From NCBI GenBank assembly GCA_041640655.1, contig JBEPZV010000005.1, positions 32,001 to 96,000 of the forward strand: a stretch of 64,000 bases of DNA. Direction: 5' to 3'. A program made the position numbers and the translations under genes. Source of the stretch: a bacterium. Its GTDB lineage: Bacteria; Acidobacteriota; Blastocatellia; HR10. Positions 2 to 49,638 of the stretch are shown in pieces (within the stretch, counting starts at the first letter, position 1; the number at the start of each line of letters is the position of its first letter). The notes under the pieces are model-generated. The model saw only the letters and a list, made by a program, of their open reading frames with translations. It had not been told where the DNA came from and did not search any database.

Positions 2-1105
2 AAGCGAGAACAGGAATATCGTCAGCAGCGCGAGGAGTTCTTCGAGGCCGTGAAGCGACTCAACCGCCGAGAGTTCATGAAGATCGCCGGTCTGTCGGCG
101 GCGGTCTTCACGGCGAAGCAGGTCGTTCCCCCCCATTCGTTCCAAGTCGTGGACGTCGTGCGGGCCGATCCGCAGGAGAAGCCGCTCTTCCGCTTCGCCT
201 ACATCTCCGACACGCATCTCTATGAGCGGGAGTTGAACGAGCGCTTCGTCAACGCGGCGCTTCGGGCCGTGCGCGACGTCAATGCGCTGGATCCGCCTCC
301 TGATTTCGTCCTCTTCGGAGGGGATCTGGCGCAGCTCGGACAACCGAAGGAGTTGGAGTTGGGGAAGCAAATCCTGAGCGAGCTGAAGGTGCCCGTGAAG
401 ATGATGGTCGGCGAGCATGATTGGTTCCTCGATATGGGCGAGAAGTGGCGTGAGCTGTTCGGGCCCGAGAATTACTCGTTCGACCACAAGGGGGTGCACT
501 TCATCGTCCTGATGAGCGTGAACGAGAAGGACTTCTGGACCGAGCGGAAGATGACGCCGATGGAGCGCATGCTCACGGTCGCGCAGCTCGACAATCCCAT
601 CCAGAGTCGGTTCGAGGTGGGCGAAGAAGGGCGCGAGTGGCTGCGGCGCGATCTGGCGCGGGTCTCCAAGGACACGCCCATCATCATCTTCTCCCACTCG
701 CCGCTCTACAAGTACTATCGCCCGTGGAACTTCTGGACCGAGGACGCCGAGGCGATTCACGAGATGCTCTTCCCCTTCAAGTCGGTGACGGTCATTCACG
801 GCCACACGCATCAGCTGCTGACTCATCGGATTCAGAACATTCACTTCCACGGGATGCTCTCGACGGCGTGGCCGTGGCCTTACGCTCCGGAGGGCTTGCC
901 CAAGTTGACCGTGCCCATGGAGCGGCCCGATCCCTTCGATGAGGCCGATGGGACGGGGTGGGGCACGGTGGACGTGCATCGTGATGGCTATGTGGACAAG
1001 CACTACAACCTCTGGAGCCGAAATCCGATCACGGTCGCCAAGGCATATCTGGAATCGTGGGGCAAGGAGGCCGTCCCTCCGATTCCCGAATTTCCACCGT
1101 ATTAG
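2..1105 (+). CDS. Tat-exported calcineurin-like metallophosphoesterase (5' end probably outside the window)
   Basis: Twin-arginine motif NRREFMK; metallophosphoesterase motifs SDTH, GGDL, GEHD, FSH, HGHTH. The frame is open back to position 2 (KREQEYRQQREEFFEAVK), so the true start is likely upstream of the window. Confidence 0.85.
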   Translation, partial: KREQEYRQQREEFFEAVKRLNRREFMKIAGLSAAVFTAKQVVPPHSFQVVDVVRADPQEKPLFRFAYISDTHLYERELNERFVNAALRAVRDVNALDPPPDFVLFGGDLAQLGQPKELELGKQILSELKVPVKMMVGEHDWFLDMGEKWRELFGPENYSFDHKGVHFIVLMSVNEKDFWTERKMTPMERMLTVAQLDNPIQSRFEVGEEGREWLRRDLARVSKDTPIIIFSHSPLYKYYRPWNFWTEDAEAIHEMLFPFKSVTVIHGHTHQLLTHRIQNIHFHGMLSTAWPWPYAPEGLPKLTVPMERPDPFDEADGTGWGTVDVHRDGYVDKHYNLWSRNPITVAKAYLESWGKEAVPPIPEFPPY

Positions 1106-1118
1106 ATGGGAGGAGGCG

Positions 1119-1724
1119 ATGAGGACAGCGAAATGGTTTCTCCTGGTCGCGGGGATTCTGGGGATCGCGCTTGTCGCGACATCGTGGGATCGGTCGGCCG
1201 CCGGCGCGCAGGAGTCGAAGCCATCCGGCGGCTCCGATCGCCTCGTCGTGCAGCTCTGTGATGGCGAGACGAAATTGGAGATCGCCGATGCGCGCGCGGG
1301 CGAGGTCCTGCCGCCCGAGAAAGCGCGCGAAGTGGCGCGCCGCATGATGGCCGCCTACGCCGAACAGCAGGCCAAGCAAGTCTCCAAATGGACGGCGCGC
1401 GATCGCTTGACGTGGGAGCGCGAGCAGAAGCGCGTGATCGAGGAGGGGTACAAGCTCTTCCATGATTGGAAGGCGCTGGGGGGCACCATCGGCATCTCCT
1501 GCGATATGTGCCATCCAGATGCGGCGGCGACGCATCCGGAGACCTATCCGAAGTTCCAGACCCAGCTCAAGCGCGTGGCCACCTTGCGCGACATGATCAA
1601 CTGGTGCATCGAGAATCCCATGAAGGGGAAGCCCCTGCCGCCGGACGATCCGCGCATGATCGCGCTCGAAGCCTATATCACGAGCACGCGCAAGGGCGTG
1701 CCACTCGAGCCTGGGAAACATTGA
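1119..1724 (+). CDS. Secreted monoheme c-type cytochrome, SoxA/TsdA-like domain
   Basis: AGGAGG RBS at 1111-1116; signal peptide; CDMCH heme motif followed by YPKF...TLRDMINWCIENPMKGKPL...MIALEAY, which resembles SoxA/TsdA heme domains with a candidate Cys axial ligand. Confidence 0.75.
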   Translation: MRTAKWFLLVAGILGIALVATSWDRSAAGAQESKPSGGSDRLVVQLCDGETKLEIADARAGEVLPPEKAREVARRMMAAYAEQQAKQVSKWTARDRLTWEREQKRVIEEGYKLFHDWKALGGTIGISCDMCHPDAAATHPETYPKFQTQLKRVATLRDMINWCIENPMKGKPLPPDDPRMIALEAYITSTRKGVPLEPGKH

Positions 1725-1833: not shown

Positions 1834-1852
1834 GCCGACCGGCCCGGTCGGC
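1834..1852 (-). promoter_or_regulatory. Putative bacterial SECIS hairpin for U74 (in the 3' UTR)
   Basis: Minus strand GCCGACC-GGGCC-GGTCGGC perfect stem begins 11 nt 3' of the second in-frame UGA; the loop starts with G. Confidence 0.6.
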
Positions 1853-1854
1853 CT

Positions 1855-2085
1855 TCACACCCCTCAGGTCCCTCCGAAGCCGATGGTCACCCGCTCGCCT
1901 TCCACGATCACGGGCACGCTGCGCTTGCCCCCCGAATAGTGGAGCATGCGTTGGAAGGCCGACTCGTCCTTCTGCACGTTGAAGTAGTGGACGTCGTATC
2001 CGCGTTGGCCGTAGTCCTCACGGGCGGCCGTCGTATACGGTCAGGTGTCTTTGCCGAAGATGAGCACGATCTTCTTCTGCTCCAT
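1855..2085 (-). CDS. Glutaredoxin-like selenoprotein with two predicted selenocysteines (U15, U74), UXX-stop type
   Basis: GGAGGTGAGGAG RBS then ATG at 2085. Translation: MEQKKIVLIFGKDTUPYTTAAREDYGQRGYDVHYFNVQKDESAFQRMLHYSGGKRSVPVIVEGERVTIGFGGTUGV*. It has glutaredoxin hallmarks (UPYT at the CPYC position, SVPVI cis-Pro motif, IGF). In-frame TGA codons lie at 2041-2043 and 1864-1866. Absent from the supplied ORF track. Confidence 0.85.
2007..2029 (-). promoter_or_regulatory. Putative bacterial SECIS hairpin for U15
   Basis: Minus strand GGCCG-CCC-GTGA-GG-ACTA-CGGCC begins 11 nt 3' of the first in-frame UGA; the apical loop starts with GU. Confidence 0.6.
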
Positions 2086-2117
2086 CACTCCTCACCTCCG
2101 CTTCCCAGGCATCTGGC

Positions 2118-5348
<3,231 letters not shown>

Positions 5349-5541
5349 AGCCCCCGTTCGCGCGAATGGAGAGTATGGCGTATTGTGGCTCGAGAGAGCA
5401 AGAGGAAGGGCGGATCCTGATCTGGGCGGTTTCCATTCCCTTATTGACAAATCAGGCCGCTTTATGCTATCTAGTGGCGCTGCCATGAAGATACGGAAGC
5501 GCCGGTTGTGGTCTTTTTTTCTGCCGCGAGGGGAAGAGCAT

Positions 5542-7404
5542 ATGTTACGACGGGTCGTCAGCGGACTCATCGGGATACAGCTTGGCCTTTTTTCGAGCGT
5601 CGCGGCCTTGTCGCCGGTGAGGGGGGAGTTCGAGGCTCGCGCTGCGGCTGCGCCACAGGGGGAGCTGCGCCCGGAAGCCTCTCCGCCATCGGCTCAGGAG
5701 GCGCAGCTCCATGCCCTCATTCAGCGCGCTGAGGCTCTGTTTCGACAAGGGGAGGCGGCCTACCGCCAGGGGGATTTCGTGCGCGCGCGCGAGGCGTTCG
5801 ATCGCGCGGTGGACGTGATCTTGGAGGCGCGCGTGAACGTGTCCGCCTATCCGCAGCTCCTGGCGTACTATCGTTCGCTGATCGAGCGCATCCACGCTTA
5901 TCAATTGGAAGCCGCCATGCAGGGCGCGGAGTTCCGACAACAGTATGAGCCGTCGCTCTTGGAGGAGCTGGCCAAGATCGAGTTGGGGAGAGAAGACATC
6001 GAGGCAGGGGCGCGCGAGACGGAGGAGATCACGCTGGACTTTCCGGTGACGATCACCCCTGAAGTCCGGCAGTTCATCCACTACTTCACGCGGAACCCCA
6101 AAGGGCGGGCGACGATGGAGGTGGGCTTGCGGCGCGCCGGGCGATATCTGGAGTTGGCGCGGCGCATCTTCCAGGAGGAAGGGGTCCCGCTGGACCTGGT
6201 GTGGCTGGCTCAGGCCGAGAGCAATTGGCGCCCCCATGCCCGCTCTCCGATGAATGCGCAGGGGATTTGGCAGTTCATTCCGGGGACGGGGGCCAAGTAT
6301 GGATTGCGGCAGACCAGTTGGCTGGACGAACGTTCCGGGCTGGAGCAGCCCACGCGCGCCGCCGCCCGCTACTTGAAGTTCCTCTATGAGCGCTACTTGG
6401 ATTGGCCCCTGGCCCTGGCCGCCTATAACTGTGGGGAGGCGACCGTGGATCGAGCGATCGCCGCCTCCGGATATGCCGATTTCTGGTATCTGCACCGCAA
6501 TCGCCTGCTGCCGGCTGAGACCCGCAATTATGTTCCCATCATCTTGGCGATCATCGCGATCGCGAAGAATCCGGAGCGCTACGGCTTCACCGACATTGAG
6601 CCGGAGCCGACTCTGGAGTATGAGACCGTGCCCGTCCAAGGACCGATTGACGTGCGCTTGATCGCCGAGGCAGTAGGCACGACGCCCGAGCACATCCGTG
6701 ACCTCAATCCCGAACTCAAGCGTGGATACGTGCCGCTGGGAGAGACCTACACGGTGCGTGTGCCGGTGGGTACGGGCGAGCAGCTGATCGCCCTGCTGGA
6801 GCGTGTGCCCGTGGGGAATCGAGATTCTTGGCGCATCCACAGCGTCGCGGAAGGGGAGACGCTTCAGAGCATCGCCGAGGAACATCGCGTGAGCGCCGAA
6901 GAGATCGCGCGGGTGAACGATTTGGGGGCTGAAGCGAGGCTCCCGGCGGGCACGCGACTGATCATCCCGACGTCGGTGCGGCGCCAGCCTCTCAGGAGCG
7001 TGCCGGGCGTAGAGCTGGCGCGCCTCTCGGTCGTACGCCTGACCATCCGCGTGCGTCCGGGAGATACGATGACGCGCATCGCGGCGCGCTACGGCCTCTC
7101 GGCTCGTGATATCGCGCGCCTCAACGGCCTGAGCCCGCGAGCGAAATTGCGCGCTGGTCAAACGCTGGTCATCGCCGTGCCCTCGGAGCGAGTGAAACGA
7201 TCGAACGTGTCCAGGACGTCTTCTCGAACCAAGAGTCTCGCTCCCGCGCGCGGACGTCGCTTTACATATCGCGTGCGTCCTGGGGATACGCTCCTGGAGA
7301 TCGCCAATCGGTATGAGGTGACAGTCGCTGATCTTCGTCGGTGGAACCGCCTCTCGGGCGACCTCATCAAACCCGGACAGATCTTGGTGATCTATCGGCA
7401 GTGA
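5542..7404 (+). CDS. Lytic transglycosylase (SLT domain) with three LysM domains, MltD-like
   Basis: Signal-like N-terminus [11 protein letters not shown] motifs [24 protein letters not shown]; LysM repeats (VAEGETL, VRPGDTM, VRPGDTL). TTGACA at 5444-5449 upstream. Confidence 0.9.
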
Positions 7405-47148: not shown

Positions 47149-48519
47149 GTGGCGAGGAGCCAAAAGAGCGTTTACGTTTGCCAGCACTGCGGATACCAAT
47201 CGCCCAAGTGGTTGGGGAGATGTCCGACCTGCGGGGAGTGGCATTCGCTCGTTGAAGAACGCGAACCGTCGTCAGAGGGGGAGCGGCATCGTCTCGCGCG
47301 CGCGGGTCGTGCGACGCCGAAATCCTACGTGGAGATCGCGCAGCAGGCGGACGTTCGCTGGAGCAGCGGTCTCCCCGAATTCGACCGCGTGCTCGGAGGG
47401 GGGATCGTCCCCGGAAGCGTCGTGCTCGTGGGGGGCGATCCGGGGATCGGCAAGAGCACCCTGCTGCTGCAGGTCGCCGATCAGCTGACGCGGCGGTATG
47501 GAGCGGTGCTCTATGTCTCCGGTGAAGAGTCGGAGCGGCAGATCAAGATGCGGGGGGAGCGATTGGGGCTGGAGGCGCGAGCGCTGTATGTGCTGACCGA
47601 GACCTGCCTGGAATCGGTGTGCGAGGCGATCGAGACGTTGCGCCCTTCGGCGGCCGTCATTGACTCGATCCAGACGATCTTCTCCGAGACGCTCGAATCG
47701 GTGCCGGGCAGCCTCACGCAGGTGCGCGAGGCCGCGACGCGATTCCTCCTGCTGGCCAAGAGCTACGAGATCCCCATCTTCCTGATCGGGCACGTGACCA
47801 AGGAAGGCCTGATCGCCGGGCCGAAGGCACTCGAGCATATCGTGGACGCGGTGCTCTATTTCGAGGGGGAGCGCCATCAGAATCATCGGGTGATCCGCGC
47901 CGTGAAGAATCGCTATGGGGCGACCAATGAGGTGGGGGTCTTCGAGATGACGTCGCAGGGATTGATTCCGGTCGCCAATCCCTCGGCCATGTTCCTGAGC
48001 GAGCGCCCGGTGGGCGTCTCGGGATCGGTCGTCTCGGCCTGCCTGGAGGGGACGCGCCCGATTCTGATCGAGCTGCAAGCCCTGGTGGGACCGAGCGGCT
48101 ATGGGGCGGGACGGCGGATGACGCAGGGCGTAGACCCGTATCGAGTGGCGTTGCTGCTGGCCGTGCTAGAACGGCGCGCGGGATTTCAGTTGGTCGGCTG
48201 CGATGTCTTCGTCAACGTCGCCGGAGGGATCACCGTGGATGAGCCCGCTGTGGATCTGGCCATCGTCGCCGCCGTCGCCTCCAGCTTCCGGAATGTGGCG
48301 CTGGATGCGCACACGGTCATCTTCGGAGAAGTCGGATTGGCCGGAGAGGTGCGGGCCGTCTCCGCAGCCGCCGCGCGCGCCCGCGAGGCTGCTCAGATGG
48401 GCTTCCGCCGCCTCATCCTGCCGGAGAATAATCGCCGGAGCGTGGAGGCTCCGGCCACATTGGAGGTCATCGGCGTGCGCTCGATCTTCGAAGCTCTCGA
48501 GCTGGTGGTATCGGAATGA
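47149..48519 (+). CDS. radA: DNA repair protein RadA/Sms
   Basis: CQHCG...CPTC zinc finger, GDPGIGKST, IDSIQT, KNRYG. Confidence 0.97.
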   Translation: MARSQKSVYVCQHCGYQSPKWLGRCPTCGEWHSLVEEREPSSEGERHRLARAGRATPKSYVEIAQQADVRWSSGLPEFDRVLGGGIVPGSVVLVGGDPGIGKSTLLLQVADQLTRRYGAVLYVSGEESERQIKMRGERLGLEARALYVLTETCLESVCEAIETLRPSAAVIDSIQTIFSETLESVPGSLTQVREAATRFLLLAKSYEIPIFLIGHVTKEGLIAGPKALEHIVDAVLYFEGERHQNHRVIRAVKNRYGATNEVGVFEMTSQGLIPVANPSAMFLSERPVGVSGSVVSACLEGTRPILIELQALVGPSGYGAGRRMTQGVDPYRVALLLAVLERRAGFQLVGCDVFVNVAGGITVDEPAVDLAIVAAVASSFRNVALDAHTVIFGEVGLAGEVRAVSAAAARAREAAQMGFRRLILPENNRRSVEAPATLEVIGVRSIFEALELVVSE

Positions 48520-48594
48520 GCGAGGGGGCGTCGAGCGCTCGCCCTCGCATTCGGATCGCCATGCCCTGACGGTATGGCGATTGGAGGGAGCAGA

Positions 48595-49638
48595 ATGAGG
48601 GTGAATACGGATGTCCTCTTGATTCGAATCATCTTCACGGCGATGCTCATCGCGGCGGGGTACTTCCTTCGCCCCATCTCTCATGACGCGCGTCTCTCGG
48701 GGGGGGTGGCCGGAGCCCTGGCGCTGGCCATCATCTTCTTCGAGACGCGCGTGCGTCGGGCCTCGTTGAAGACGCTGATCGGAGCGGCCATGGGATCCAT
48801 TCTCGGCATCATCGGCGCAACGCTCATCGGTTTCCTCATCACCGTTCAGGGCGCCTTGCCCTCGGACGTGCGCGCCTACGTGACGTTGGCGTTGCTGCTG
48901 CTGATGGCGTATGTGGGCCTGATGGTCGGCGCCGCCAAGGGGGAGTTCCTCGATCTCTCGGCGCTGGGCGGGTTCGTGCGCGAGCGCAGTTCGCGGAATG
49001 TGAAGATCCTCGATACGAGCGTCATCATTGATGGGCGCATTGCGGACATCGTGGAGACGGGATTCCTCGAGGGCGTGCTCGTGATCCCGAATTTCATCCT
49101 CCGGGAGTTGCAACAGATCGCCGATTCCCCGGATGCGCACAAGCGCAATCGCGGTCGGCGGGGATTGGACATCTTGCAGCGGTTGCAGACCAAGCATGGG
49201 GTCACGGTTCAATTCTCCGAGGTTGATTTCCCCGAGCTTCGGGATGTGGATCAGAAGCTCATCGAGTTGGCCAAGCAGTTGGGGGCCAAGATCGTGACCA
49301 ACGATTTCAACCTCAACAAGGTGGCGCAACTGCGAGGCGTCGAGGTCTTGAACATCAACGAGCTGGCCAATGCGTTGAAGCCCGTGGTCTTGCCCGGCGA
49401 GACGATGCGCGTCTTCATCCTCAAGGAGGGGAAGGAGGCCAATCAGGGCGTCGCGTATCTGGACGATGGGACGATGGTCGTCGTGGATAACGCTCGCAAG
49501 ATGATCGGCAAGACCATCGAGGCGACGGTGACCAGCGTCTTGCAGACGACGGCGGGGAAGATGATCTTCGGGCGATACGTCGAGGACGCGCGTTCGACGC
49601 GAGGTTCGCGGTCCTCGCATGTGGCCGAGGAACCCTGA
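48595..49638 (+). CDS. Membrane PIN/TRAM domain protein (YacL-like)
   Basis: Four TMs; ILDTSVIIDGRI, RGRRGLD, TNDFNLNKVA, QGVAYLDDGTMVVV. Confidence 0.92.
   Translation: MRVNTDVLLIRIIFTAMLIAAGYFLRPISHDARLSGGVAGALALAIIFFETRVRRASLKTLIGAAMGSILGIIGATLIGFLITVQGALPSDVRAYVTLALLLLMAYVGLMVGAAKGEFLDLSALGGFVRERSSRNVKILDTSVIIDGRIADIVETGFLEGVLVIPNFILRELQQIADSPDAHKRNRGRRGLDILQRLQTKHGVTVQFSEVDFPELRDVDQKLIELAKQLGAKIVTNDFNLNKVAQLRGVEVLNINELANALKPVVLPGETMRVFILKEGKEANQGVAYLDDGTMVVVDNARKMIGKTIEATVTSVLQTTAGKMIFGRYVEDARSTRGSRSSHVAEEP

Follow-up and report, generated by a model that had tools for sequence, protein, structure and literature searches.

The locus downstream of carB

The window (the whole 64 000-nt stretch of DNA that was analysed) carries on its minus strand carB, encoding the large subunit of carbamoyl-phosphate synthase (2118..5570), and, directly downstream, a short gene that is read here as a selenoprotein gene. 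The carB open frame comprises 1150 codons and its stop codon is at 2120-2118; its domains occupy the same position in four close relatives. A gap of 32 nt separates this frame from the ATG of the short gene (2085-2083, minus strand). The gap contains a Shine-Dalgarno-like stretch (2088..2099, minus strand), read from the sequence as GGAGG (2099-2095) followed by GAGGAG (2093-2088). The two genes probably share a transcript.

With TGA read as selenocysteine (Sec, U), the coding sequence (1858..2085, minus strand) has 76 codons. The layout of the full product is MEQKKIVLIFGKDT-U-PYTTAAREDYGQRGYDVHYFNVQKDESAFQRMLHYSGGKRSVPVIVEGERVTIGFGGT-U-GV, followed by a third TGA on the same strand; in terms of its motifs, the 76 residues read MEQKKIVLIFGKDT-U-PYTTAARE...SVPVIVEGERVTIGFGGT-U-GV-stop, with U15-P-Y-T as the active-site motif and G-G-T-U74-G-V at the C-terminus. 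The first Sec codon (codon 15, 2041..2043) stands where glutaredoxins have their N-terminal active-site Cys, as judged from the relatives and from an alignment to Synechocystis glutaredoxin A. The second (codon 74, 1864..1866), assigned from codon usage in the relatives, lies three codons ahead of the stop. The third UGA (codon 77, 1855..1857) is taken as the true stop from the end of the family profile and from the variation of the stop codon in relatives. Two putative SECIS elements accompany the Sec codons, also on the minus strand. Element 1 (2007..2029), assigned by folding and comparative evidence, lies within the coding sequence and consists of a 5-bp lower stem, an internal loop, a CC/GG mini-stem and a GUGA loop. 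Element 2 (1834..1852), assigned by folding, relatives and covariation, lies in the 3' UTR and has a GC stem of 7-8 bp with a GGGCC (or GGC) loop. An earlier reading made without database searches (the sequence-only reading) had described a strong ribosome-binding site with an ATG at 2085, a 76-residue frame with UGA read through at codons 15 and 74 and a UGA stop at codon 77, and hairpins beginning at 2029 and 1852, exactly 11 nt past each Sec UGA. Every one of these coordinates was accurate.

The read-through protein matched all 70 positions (1-70) of the NCBIfam equivalog model NF041114 ('UXX-star selenoprotein family 1') with 118.6 bits (cut-off 72), which agrees with the UXX-star glutaredoxin-like family named beforehand, and the parent model NF041212 with 96.6 bits (cut-off 66). 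A six-frame search of the genome with NF041114 gave 104.3 bits with two TGA codons inside the match, and this UXX-star gene is the only one in the genome. Against Pfam, the protein matched only the general Glutaredoxin domain (PF00462, 38.3 bits). It scored below the cut-offs of the classical glutaredoxin models (GRX_bact, 36.8 against 90; GRX_euk, 26.4 against 87.25) and of the NrdH-redoxin model TIGR02194 (16.5 bits against 85.75). Its C-terminus, GGT-U-G-V-TGA, consists of Sec, exactly two residues and a stop. The gene shares with the family the full-length profile match, the UPYT site, the C-terminal U-X-X-stop, the two Sec codons and the glutaredoxin-like fold. It departs from the family in no defining feature; it is set apart by its place directly after carB and by the loop of its 3' hairpin, which is GGGCC here and GGU(C) in most relatives.

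A full-text literature search for 'UXX-star' returned one paper, a 2026 review (PMC13188914), where family 1 appears as 'Distant Grx-like protein 1' with the motif UxxT and two Sec. The references of the review include Zhang & Gladyshev (2008) and Haft & Tolstoy (2025). In the passages searched, Zhang & Gladyshev (2008) has only 'Grx-like' rows, and neither BSepDB nor the GOS paper gave anything specific to UXX-star family 1 beyond such rows. As the family is already curated and published, the gene is a correct call and not a discovery. The earlier claim that standard ORF callers miss it holds for naive callers, since standard ORF calling shows only a 14-codon frame at this place; the family itself is catalogued and published. 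For this genome, the result amounts to an annotation fix, namely a 76-residue selenoprotein after carB that ordinary gene finders do not see.

The genome (3.13 Mb in 128 contigs, about 90% complete, 63.7% GC) was searched for the selenocysteine machinery, and all of its parts were present. Genome profile searches gave selA with 586 bits (cut-off 268), selB with 372 bits (cut-off 242) and selD with 365 bits (TIGR00476, cut-off 125), so that the three proteins exceed curated cut-offs; ARAGORN found one tRNA-Sec with the anticodon tca. The Pfam model PF00586 (AIRS) was discarded as a selD probe because it is too general, and TIGR00476 was used instead. The selD gene itself contains one in-frame TGA in the context ...GAG-U-ACK..., followed by a 7-bp hairpin with the loop GGUCG.

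Relatives of the gene were collected at two scales. Among 61 genomes (60 relatives and this genome), NF041114 matched above cut-off in nine: all seven from the genus (this genome included), the only other one from its family, and one from a different family of the same class. Both TGA codons were present in 9/9. Scanning 185 579 species, each represented by a single genome, gave 182 relatives, from which 80 loci were kept. These are labelled Acidobacteriota, Thermodesulfobacteriota/'Deltaproteobacteria' and Methylomirabilota, with single bins of Armatimonadota, Latescibacterota, Planctomycetales and others. Of the 80 loci, 59 have TGA at codon 15 and 21 a Cys codon (TGC 18, TGT 3). The frame stays conserved past the first UGA: when 78 sequences are aligned, 15 columns are invariant, among them K12, U/C15, P16, Y17, T18, R22, V57, P58, G72 and U/C74. 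The active site U15-P-Y-T18 fits U/C-x-x-T at the start of helix 1.

Predicted protein fold, gene neighbourhood and possible chemistry

The product is confidently predicted to be a 76-residue protein with a glutaredoxin/NrdH-like fold without the usual last helix. AlphaFold2, run on the 78-sequence alignment, returned a model with a mean pLDDT of 96.1 and a pTM of 0.85, and the last block of residues, tail included, had a pLDDT of 96. The order of elements in the model is strand 6-11, helix 16-27, strand 31-36, helix 41-51, strand 59-62 and strand 65-68, and the terminal helix is absent. The top Foldseek matches (TM about 0.73) were the Archaeoglobus fulgidus glutaredoxin (3ic4), Clostridium cGrx1 (7c12), Bacillus cereus BC3987 (3zit/3zij) and NrdH-redoxins (1h75, 4fiw, 4hs1). 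A profile search of solved structures aligned U15 to the first Cys of the CPFC motif of Synechocystis GrxA, which places the first UGA at the nucleophilic Cys position, as the sequence-only reading had proposed.

Dithiol glutaredoxins (PF00462; Synechocystis GrxA 3qmx, E. coli Grx3 3grx) share with this protein the thioredoxin-type fold, a Lys three residues ahead of the active site, the active site at the start of helix 1, a Val before the cis-Pro and a GG after strand 4. Unlike them, the protein has Sec for the first Cys, Thr for the resolving Cys and no CxxC, a six-residue tail with the second Sec replaces the C-terminal helix, and all NCBIfam glutaredoxin cut-offs lie above its scores. NrdH-redoxins and B. 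cereus BC3987 (1h75, 4hs1, 4fiw, 3zij) resemble it in size (73-81 residues) and fold (TM about 0.73-0.74), and nucleotide-metabolism neighbours in three lineages are a further likeness to NrdH-redoxins; these have the CxxC pair that is absent here, and their profile stays far from its cut-off, as given above.

Because Thr sits at the position of the second Cys, the partner of Sec15 must lie elsewhere, and Sec74 is the only candidate. In the model, DSSP assigned bridge residues at 56-57, just ahead of the invariant cis-Pro58, and at 74-75, both outside the four main strands. Since these bridge residues have no other free partner, residues 74-75 presumably pair with 56-57. Docking of the tail at 56-57 would place Sec74 beside Sec15: the T-U-G-V tail would fold back on the strand preceding the cis-proline. 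Sec15 and Sec74 would then form a diselenide on oxidation and return to two selenols on reduction, and the protein would be a small self-contained redox carrier. We put such an intramolecular Sec15-Sec74 cycle at about even odds. In the 21 relatives with Cys15, the oxidized pair would be a selenenylsulfide. Animal thioredoxin reductase has a flexible C-terminal Gly-Cys-Sec-Gly tail that shuttles electrons to and from a buried redox centre, with the Cys-Sec pair within the tail. The likeness lies in a Sec that is only a few residues short of the C-terminus and belongs to a flexible, Gly-rich tail; the two families are unrelated, the animal enzyme depends on a eukaryotic SECIS, and the partner of the tail would here be Sec15.

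For 78 of the 80 loci (L053-L130), the neighbourhood of the gene was examined by taking, on either side, the longest open frame found within 500 nt. This gave 150 frames that were compared with domain families at E <= 1e-5; five further frames were left out. A carB gene (CPSase_L_D2, MGS and related domains) lies upstream in four of the five closest relatives, as in the window. A ThyX gene is adjacent in nine loci of Acidobacteriota, in seven of them directly downstream on the same strand. Nucleoside diphosphate kinase was found downstream in nine loci of Thermodesulfobacteriota/'Deltaproteobacteria', and an HhH-GPD glycosylase upstream in 12 loci. Other neighbours were LolA-like (six loci), MFS (four), MMPL (three), Metallo-beta-lactamase (three) and VKOR (two). 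Three lineages have each a different pyrimidine or deoxynucleotide neighbour: carB in this genus, thyX in Vicinamibacteria-type Acidobacteriota, and ndk with a base-excision glycosylase in Thermodesulfobacteriota. As synteny is inherited within a lineage, these neighbours count as about three independent observations, and the possible link with nucleotide metabolism is a lead, not a result.

A different role for the two Sec residues, as ligands of a metal or metalloid (binding or handover of, for example, As, Hg or Cu) and not as a redox pair, would leave the decoding unchanged. Metal binding, not redox cycling, is suggested for UXX-star family 1 in the review (PMC13188914), and Foldseek lists ArsD weakly (rank 38, TM 0.54). 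Among the 150 flanking frames of the 78/80 loci, however, there was no arsenic, mercury or copper family at E <= 1e-5 (small genes may escape a scan of the longest frame per side), and different lineages have different neighbours (carB, thyX, ndk, HhH-GPD glycosylase). In its fold, its K-x-x-U-P-Y-T motif and its cis-Pro, the protein moreover matches redox-active glutaredoxins. We consider the metal-ligand role unlikely.

The diselenide carrier allows a more specific conjecture. Glutaredoxins hold the cysteine of glutathione at the strand ahead of the cis-Pro. The T-U-G-V tail could be a stand-in in cis for glutathione, lying in the groove for its Cys-Gly part, and the protein a cofactor-independent diselenide redoxin, maybe with a part in DNA or nucleotide metabolism such as that of an NrdH-like electron donor. 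This remains speculative, and we hold it to be distinctly improbable as a whole. The searchable literature returned no statement of the idea; Haft & Tolstoy (2025), which lies outside that search, may discuss it.

Putative SECIS elements and the probable reading of three UGA codons

The published rules for bacterial SECIS elements (PMC13188914, legend of Fig. 2) ask for a loop of 3-9 nt on a stem of 4-16 bp, a G within the first two loop nucleotides (mostly with G or U next), a UGA-to-loop distance of 16-37 nt and a minimum free energy <= -7.5 kcal/mol. Hairpin 2 agrees with all of them (stem 7-8 bp, loop 3-5 nt, spacing 18 nt, -14.0 kcal/mol). Hairpin 1 agrees with those for loop (GUGA), spacing (19 nt) and energy (-8.6 kcal/mol); its helices are of 2 bp and 5 bp, and its stem would fit the rule only when the two parts of the broken helix are taken together. 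A search of Rfam gave no match within 1500-2400 at E <= 1. The SECIS of E. coli fdhF has a GGUC loop and a spacing of 11 nt. Both elements resemble the bacterial consensus and fdhF in the G-initiated loop continued by G or U, in the distance of 18-19 nt from UGA to loop, in the base of the stem at 11 nt and in an energy below -7.5 kcal/mol. They differ in the interrupted stem (5 bp + 2 bp) and GUGA loop of element 1, and in the position of element 2, which is entirely in the 3' UTR, past the stop codon.

Hairpin 2 (GCCGACC-GGGCC-GGUCGGC, 1852-1834) has its base 11 nt past the second UGA and 2 nt past the stop. Its energy of folding corresponds to a z-score of -3.3, and 0/200 shuffled sequences were as stable. 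An equivalent was sought in the family as a perfect stem of at least 6 bp with a loop of 3-7 nt that has a G within its first two nucleotides and begins 15-25 nt past the UGA. It was found in 69 of 78 sequences (77 loci and the window); 200 mononucleotide shuffles averaged 10.4 and never exceeded 18, and the same test moved 60 nt downstream gave 11/76. When the stem was relaxed to at least 5 bp, 77/78 sequences had the hairpin (shuffled mean 22.9). The stems vary almost throughout: a set of 77 hairpins has 67 distinct 5' arms. The commonest spacer is 11 nt (20 sequences), followed by 10 nt (15), and the commonest loops in relatives are GGU, GGC, GGUC and GUC. Covariation was measured on an ungapped alignment of the window and 47 loci with a 3-nt central loop. 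Seven of the seven stem pairs change on both sides, with 132 cells counted against 39.4 in shuffled alignments and 20-41 when the partner was slid by 1-3 columns. The 100% pairing in this alignment is circular, because the loci were selected for having the hairpin; the information lies solely in how diverse the pair types are. RNAalifold predicted no pairs on a MAFFT alignment of the 3' UTRs, because MAFFT does not hold the variable stems in register. A covariance model of 21 positions was rejected as too weak: its best E-value was 0.025, the hits were mostly its own seeds, and five held-out loci were found on-site with few hits off-site.

Hairpin 1 (GGCCG.C.CC-GUGA-GG.ACUA.CGGCC, 2029-2007) has its base 11 nt and its loop 19 nt past the first UGA. 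Its folding energy (z -1.2) is no better than chance, as 21/200 shuffles were equally good, and the case for this element is therefore built on comparative evidence. Of the 59 Sec forms, 55 contain the core CCGUGAGG (eight bases, forming the CC/GG mini-stem and the GUGA loop); of the 21 Cys forms, one does. In 58 distinct Sec-form sequences, the codons of Ala21, Arg22 and Glu23 are almost fixed (GCC 57, CGT 55 and GAG 58, respectively) and the adjacent Ala20 codon is free (GCC 26, GCG 24, GCA 6, GCT 2). The 21 Cys forms use GCG (13), GCC (5) and GCA (3) for Ala21, and CGC (15), CGT (2), CGA (2), CGG (1) and AGA (1) for Arg22. With two registers allowed, 43/58 Sec forms have a lower stem of 4 bp or more, against 31% when the 5' and 3' halves were re-paired between sequences and 5/21 among the Cys forms. 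In 1000 re-pairings the observed mean was never attained; relatedness inflates tests of this kind. A single fixed register for the lower stem was discarded, as 53.8% of cells pair, no better than shuffles (46.7% in Cys forms). The constraint on the RNA is confined to the forms that bear the UGA, as a SECIS predicts, and this supports such a role for hairpin 1. The SECIS-like hairpins of the sequence-only reading are thus both backed by the relatives, hairpin 2 through position and covariation and hairpin 1 through a constraint found in Sec forms.

Recoding could in principle stop at the first UGA. Codon 74 would then be a real stop, the product a 73-residue protein with a single Sec, and the 3' hairpin a terminator or an mRNA-stability element. 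A hairpin right after a gene does resemble a terminator, and the extension is just three codons. Against this, no terminator was called on the minus strand and no T-run follows hairpin 2 (a plus-strand terminator hit inside the selenoprotein gene was judged to be due to chance), the family profile extends to residue 76, and hairpin 2 holds its distance to codon 74 and its G-G/U loop. The codons themselves point the same way. In 79 loci, codon 74 is TGA in 77, TGC in one (L058, an all-Cys form) and TCA in one (L059), the remaining locus (L121) ending too early; this position is more strictly conserved than that of Sec15. Homologues have Sec or Cys at both UGAs, and with the Sec machinery and the frame past the first UGA, all refuting conditions set by the sequence-only reading turned out on its side. 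The G-V codons that follow are conserved. At codon 77, the 79 readable loci have TGA (38), TAA (20), TAG (20) or ATG (1, L096), the variation that a real stop would have. Since codon 74 stays TGA and codon 77 varies between TGA, TAA and TAG, the former acts as a sense codon and the latter as the stop. The UXX-stop ending is found in 76 of the 77 relatives with TGA at codon 74, L096 being the exception. The single-Sec product is accordingly very improbable. Read-through of the third UGA was also discarded, as the sequence beyond shows no protein-level conservation and 40 relatives carry TAA or TAG at this codon.

A decayed glutaredoxin pseudogene with TGAs as ordinary stops would agree with the 14-codon frame found by a standard ORF caller, but its probability is negligible given the conservation of both TGAs and of the whole frame across several phyla (with the 15 invariant columns in 78 sequences), the Cys in place of Sec in some relatives, the complete Sec machinery of the genome and RNA-level constraints found only where a UGA is present. 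From the sequence and its comparison with relatives, we conclude that the minus-strand segment 2085-1855 is very probably a functional gene of UXX-star selenoprotein family 1, decoded via two SECIS elements.

In this two-Sec gene, UGA-15 and UGA-74 would be read as selenocysteine, each via its own SelB-binding SECIS hairpin with a G-initiated apical loop, and the third UGA (codon 77), 2 nt from the base of hairpin 2, would terminate translation. The function of a bacterial SECIS depends on its spacing from the UGA. When UGA-74 is in the A site, the base of hairpin 2, 11 nt downstream, would stand at the mRNA entrance and be able to present SelB. Three translocations on, the base would be 2 nt from the A site, with the 5' arm within the ribosome and the hairpin melted. 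Because hairpin 2 would be melted inside the ribosome, no SelB-SECIS complex should rival release factor 2 at codon 77. The sequence-only reading had seen a puzzle in one hairpin that must discriminate between two nearby UGAs. The puzzle is real; it is a general trait of the family, a TGA stop following the Sec TGA by 9 nt in 38/78 members, and the spacing rule explains it without a special mechanism. In this genome, 75% of the open frames with 400 codons or more also end in TGA. With 38/78 members and 75% of long frames using it, TGA as a true stop is neither avoided nor special, and both its avoidance and its enrichment were dropped as unsupported.

Nothing here changes in kind what is known. 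The present analysis adds family-wide support for both SECIS elements, the loss of the internal SECIS in Cys forms, the finding that the UGA-UGA arrangement is routine, and a testable proposal for what the tail may do. The family offers a natural experiment on bacterial Sec decoding: one short mRNA would carry two unlike SECIS elements (GUGA in the coding sequence, GGU(C) in the 3' UTR), about half of the members have a Sec UGA 9 nt from a terminating UGA, and relatives that switched from Sec15 to Cys have lost the RNA constraint. Two Cys forms (L061 and L078) retain most of the SECIS 1 motif and look like recent Sec-to-Cys switches.

Variation at the selenocysteine positions and at the C terminus

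Among the related loci of UXX-star selenoprotein family 1, both Sec positions are occupied by Cys in L058, which also carries an insertion of 8 residues. In L059, position 15 is encoded by TGC and position 74 by TCA (Ser). Cys was also found at position 15 in L061 and L078. Because the core of the internal SECIS, the hairpin that lies within the coding sequence after codon 15, is mostly retained in these two loci despite Cys-15, their sequences look like the product of a recent Sec-to-Cys change. The stop codon that follows the C-terminal Sec and two further residues is replaced by ATG in L096 (1714-1761), and the frame continues past this point (...GGS-U-SAMTAPGREPP...). This family member is an exception to the U-X-X-stop rule.

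Genes adjoining the selenoprotein gene

Directly downstream and on the same strand, thyX was found in Acidobacteriota lineages (L067, L081, L092, L103, L109, L111 and L127) and ndk in Thermodesulfobacteriota lineages (L073, L076, L097, L098, L116-L119 and L124). In the genus of the window, carB lies directly upstream of the selenoprotein gene. All three are genes of pyrimidine/nucleotide metabolism.

An open frame at 939-1724 (+) of the window is convergent with the selenoprotein gene. Its start resembles a signal peptide and it contains a haem motif of the CxxCH type (CDMCH). In L053, a 97% identical relative, the corresponding frame matched PF21342, the cytochrome c domain of SoxA/TsdA. Between the two convergent genes of the window lies a GC-rich inverted repeat (~1735-1770).

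Hairpins at other sites

The small hairpin model, built from the 3'-UTR hairpins of the family, gave off-site matches that scored 18-21 bits and fell in flanking sequence of related loci: L087 (493-513), L082 (3035-3055), L120 (173-193, minus strand) and L100 (2730-2750, minus strand). These could be SECIS elements of adjoining selenoprotein genes or chance GC hairpins.

Outside the window, selD of the same genome (G000, contig C2, ~48263-49189) is itself a selenoprotein gene, with an in-frame TGA within ...GAG-U-ACK.... A 7-bp hairpin is located 19 nt past this TGA, and its loop, GGUCG, is of the same type as that of the family 1 3'-UTR hairpins.
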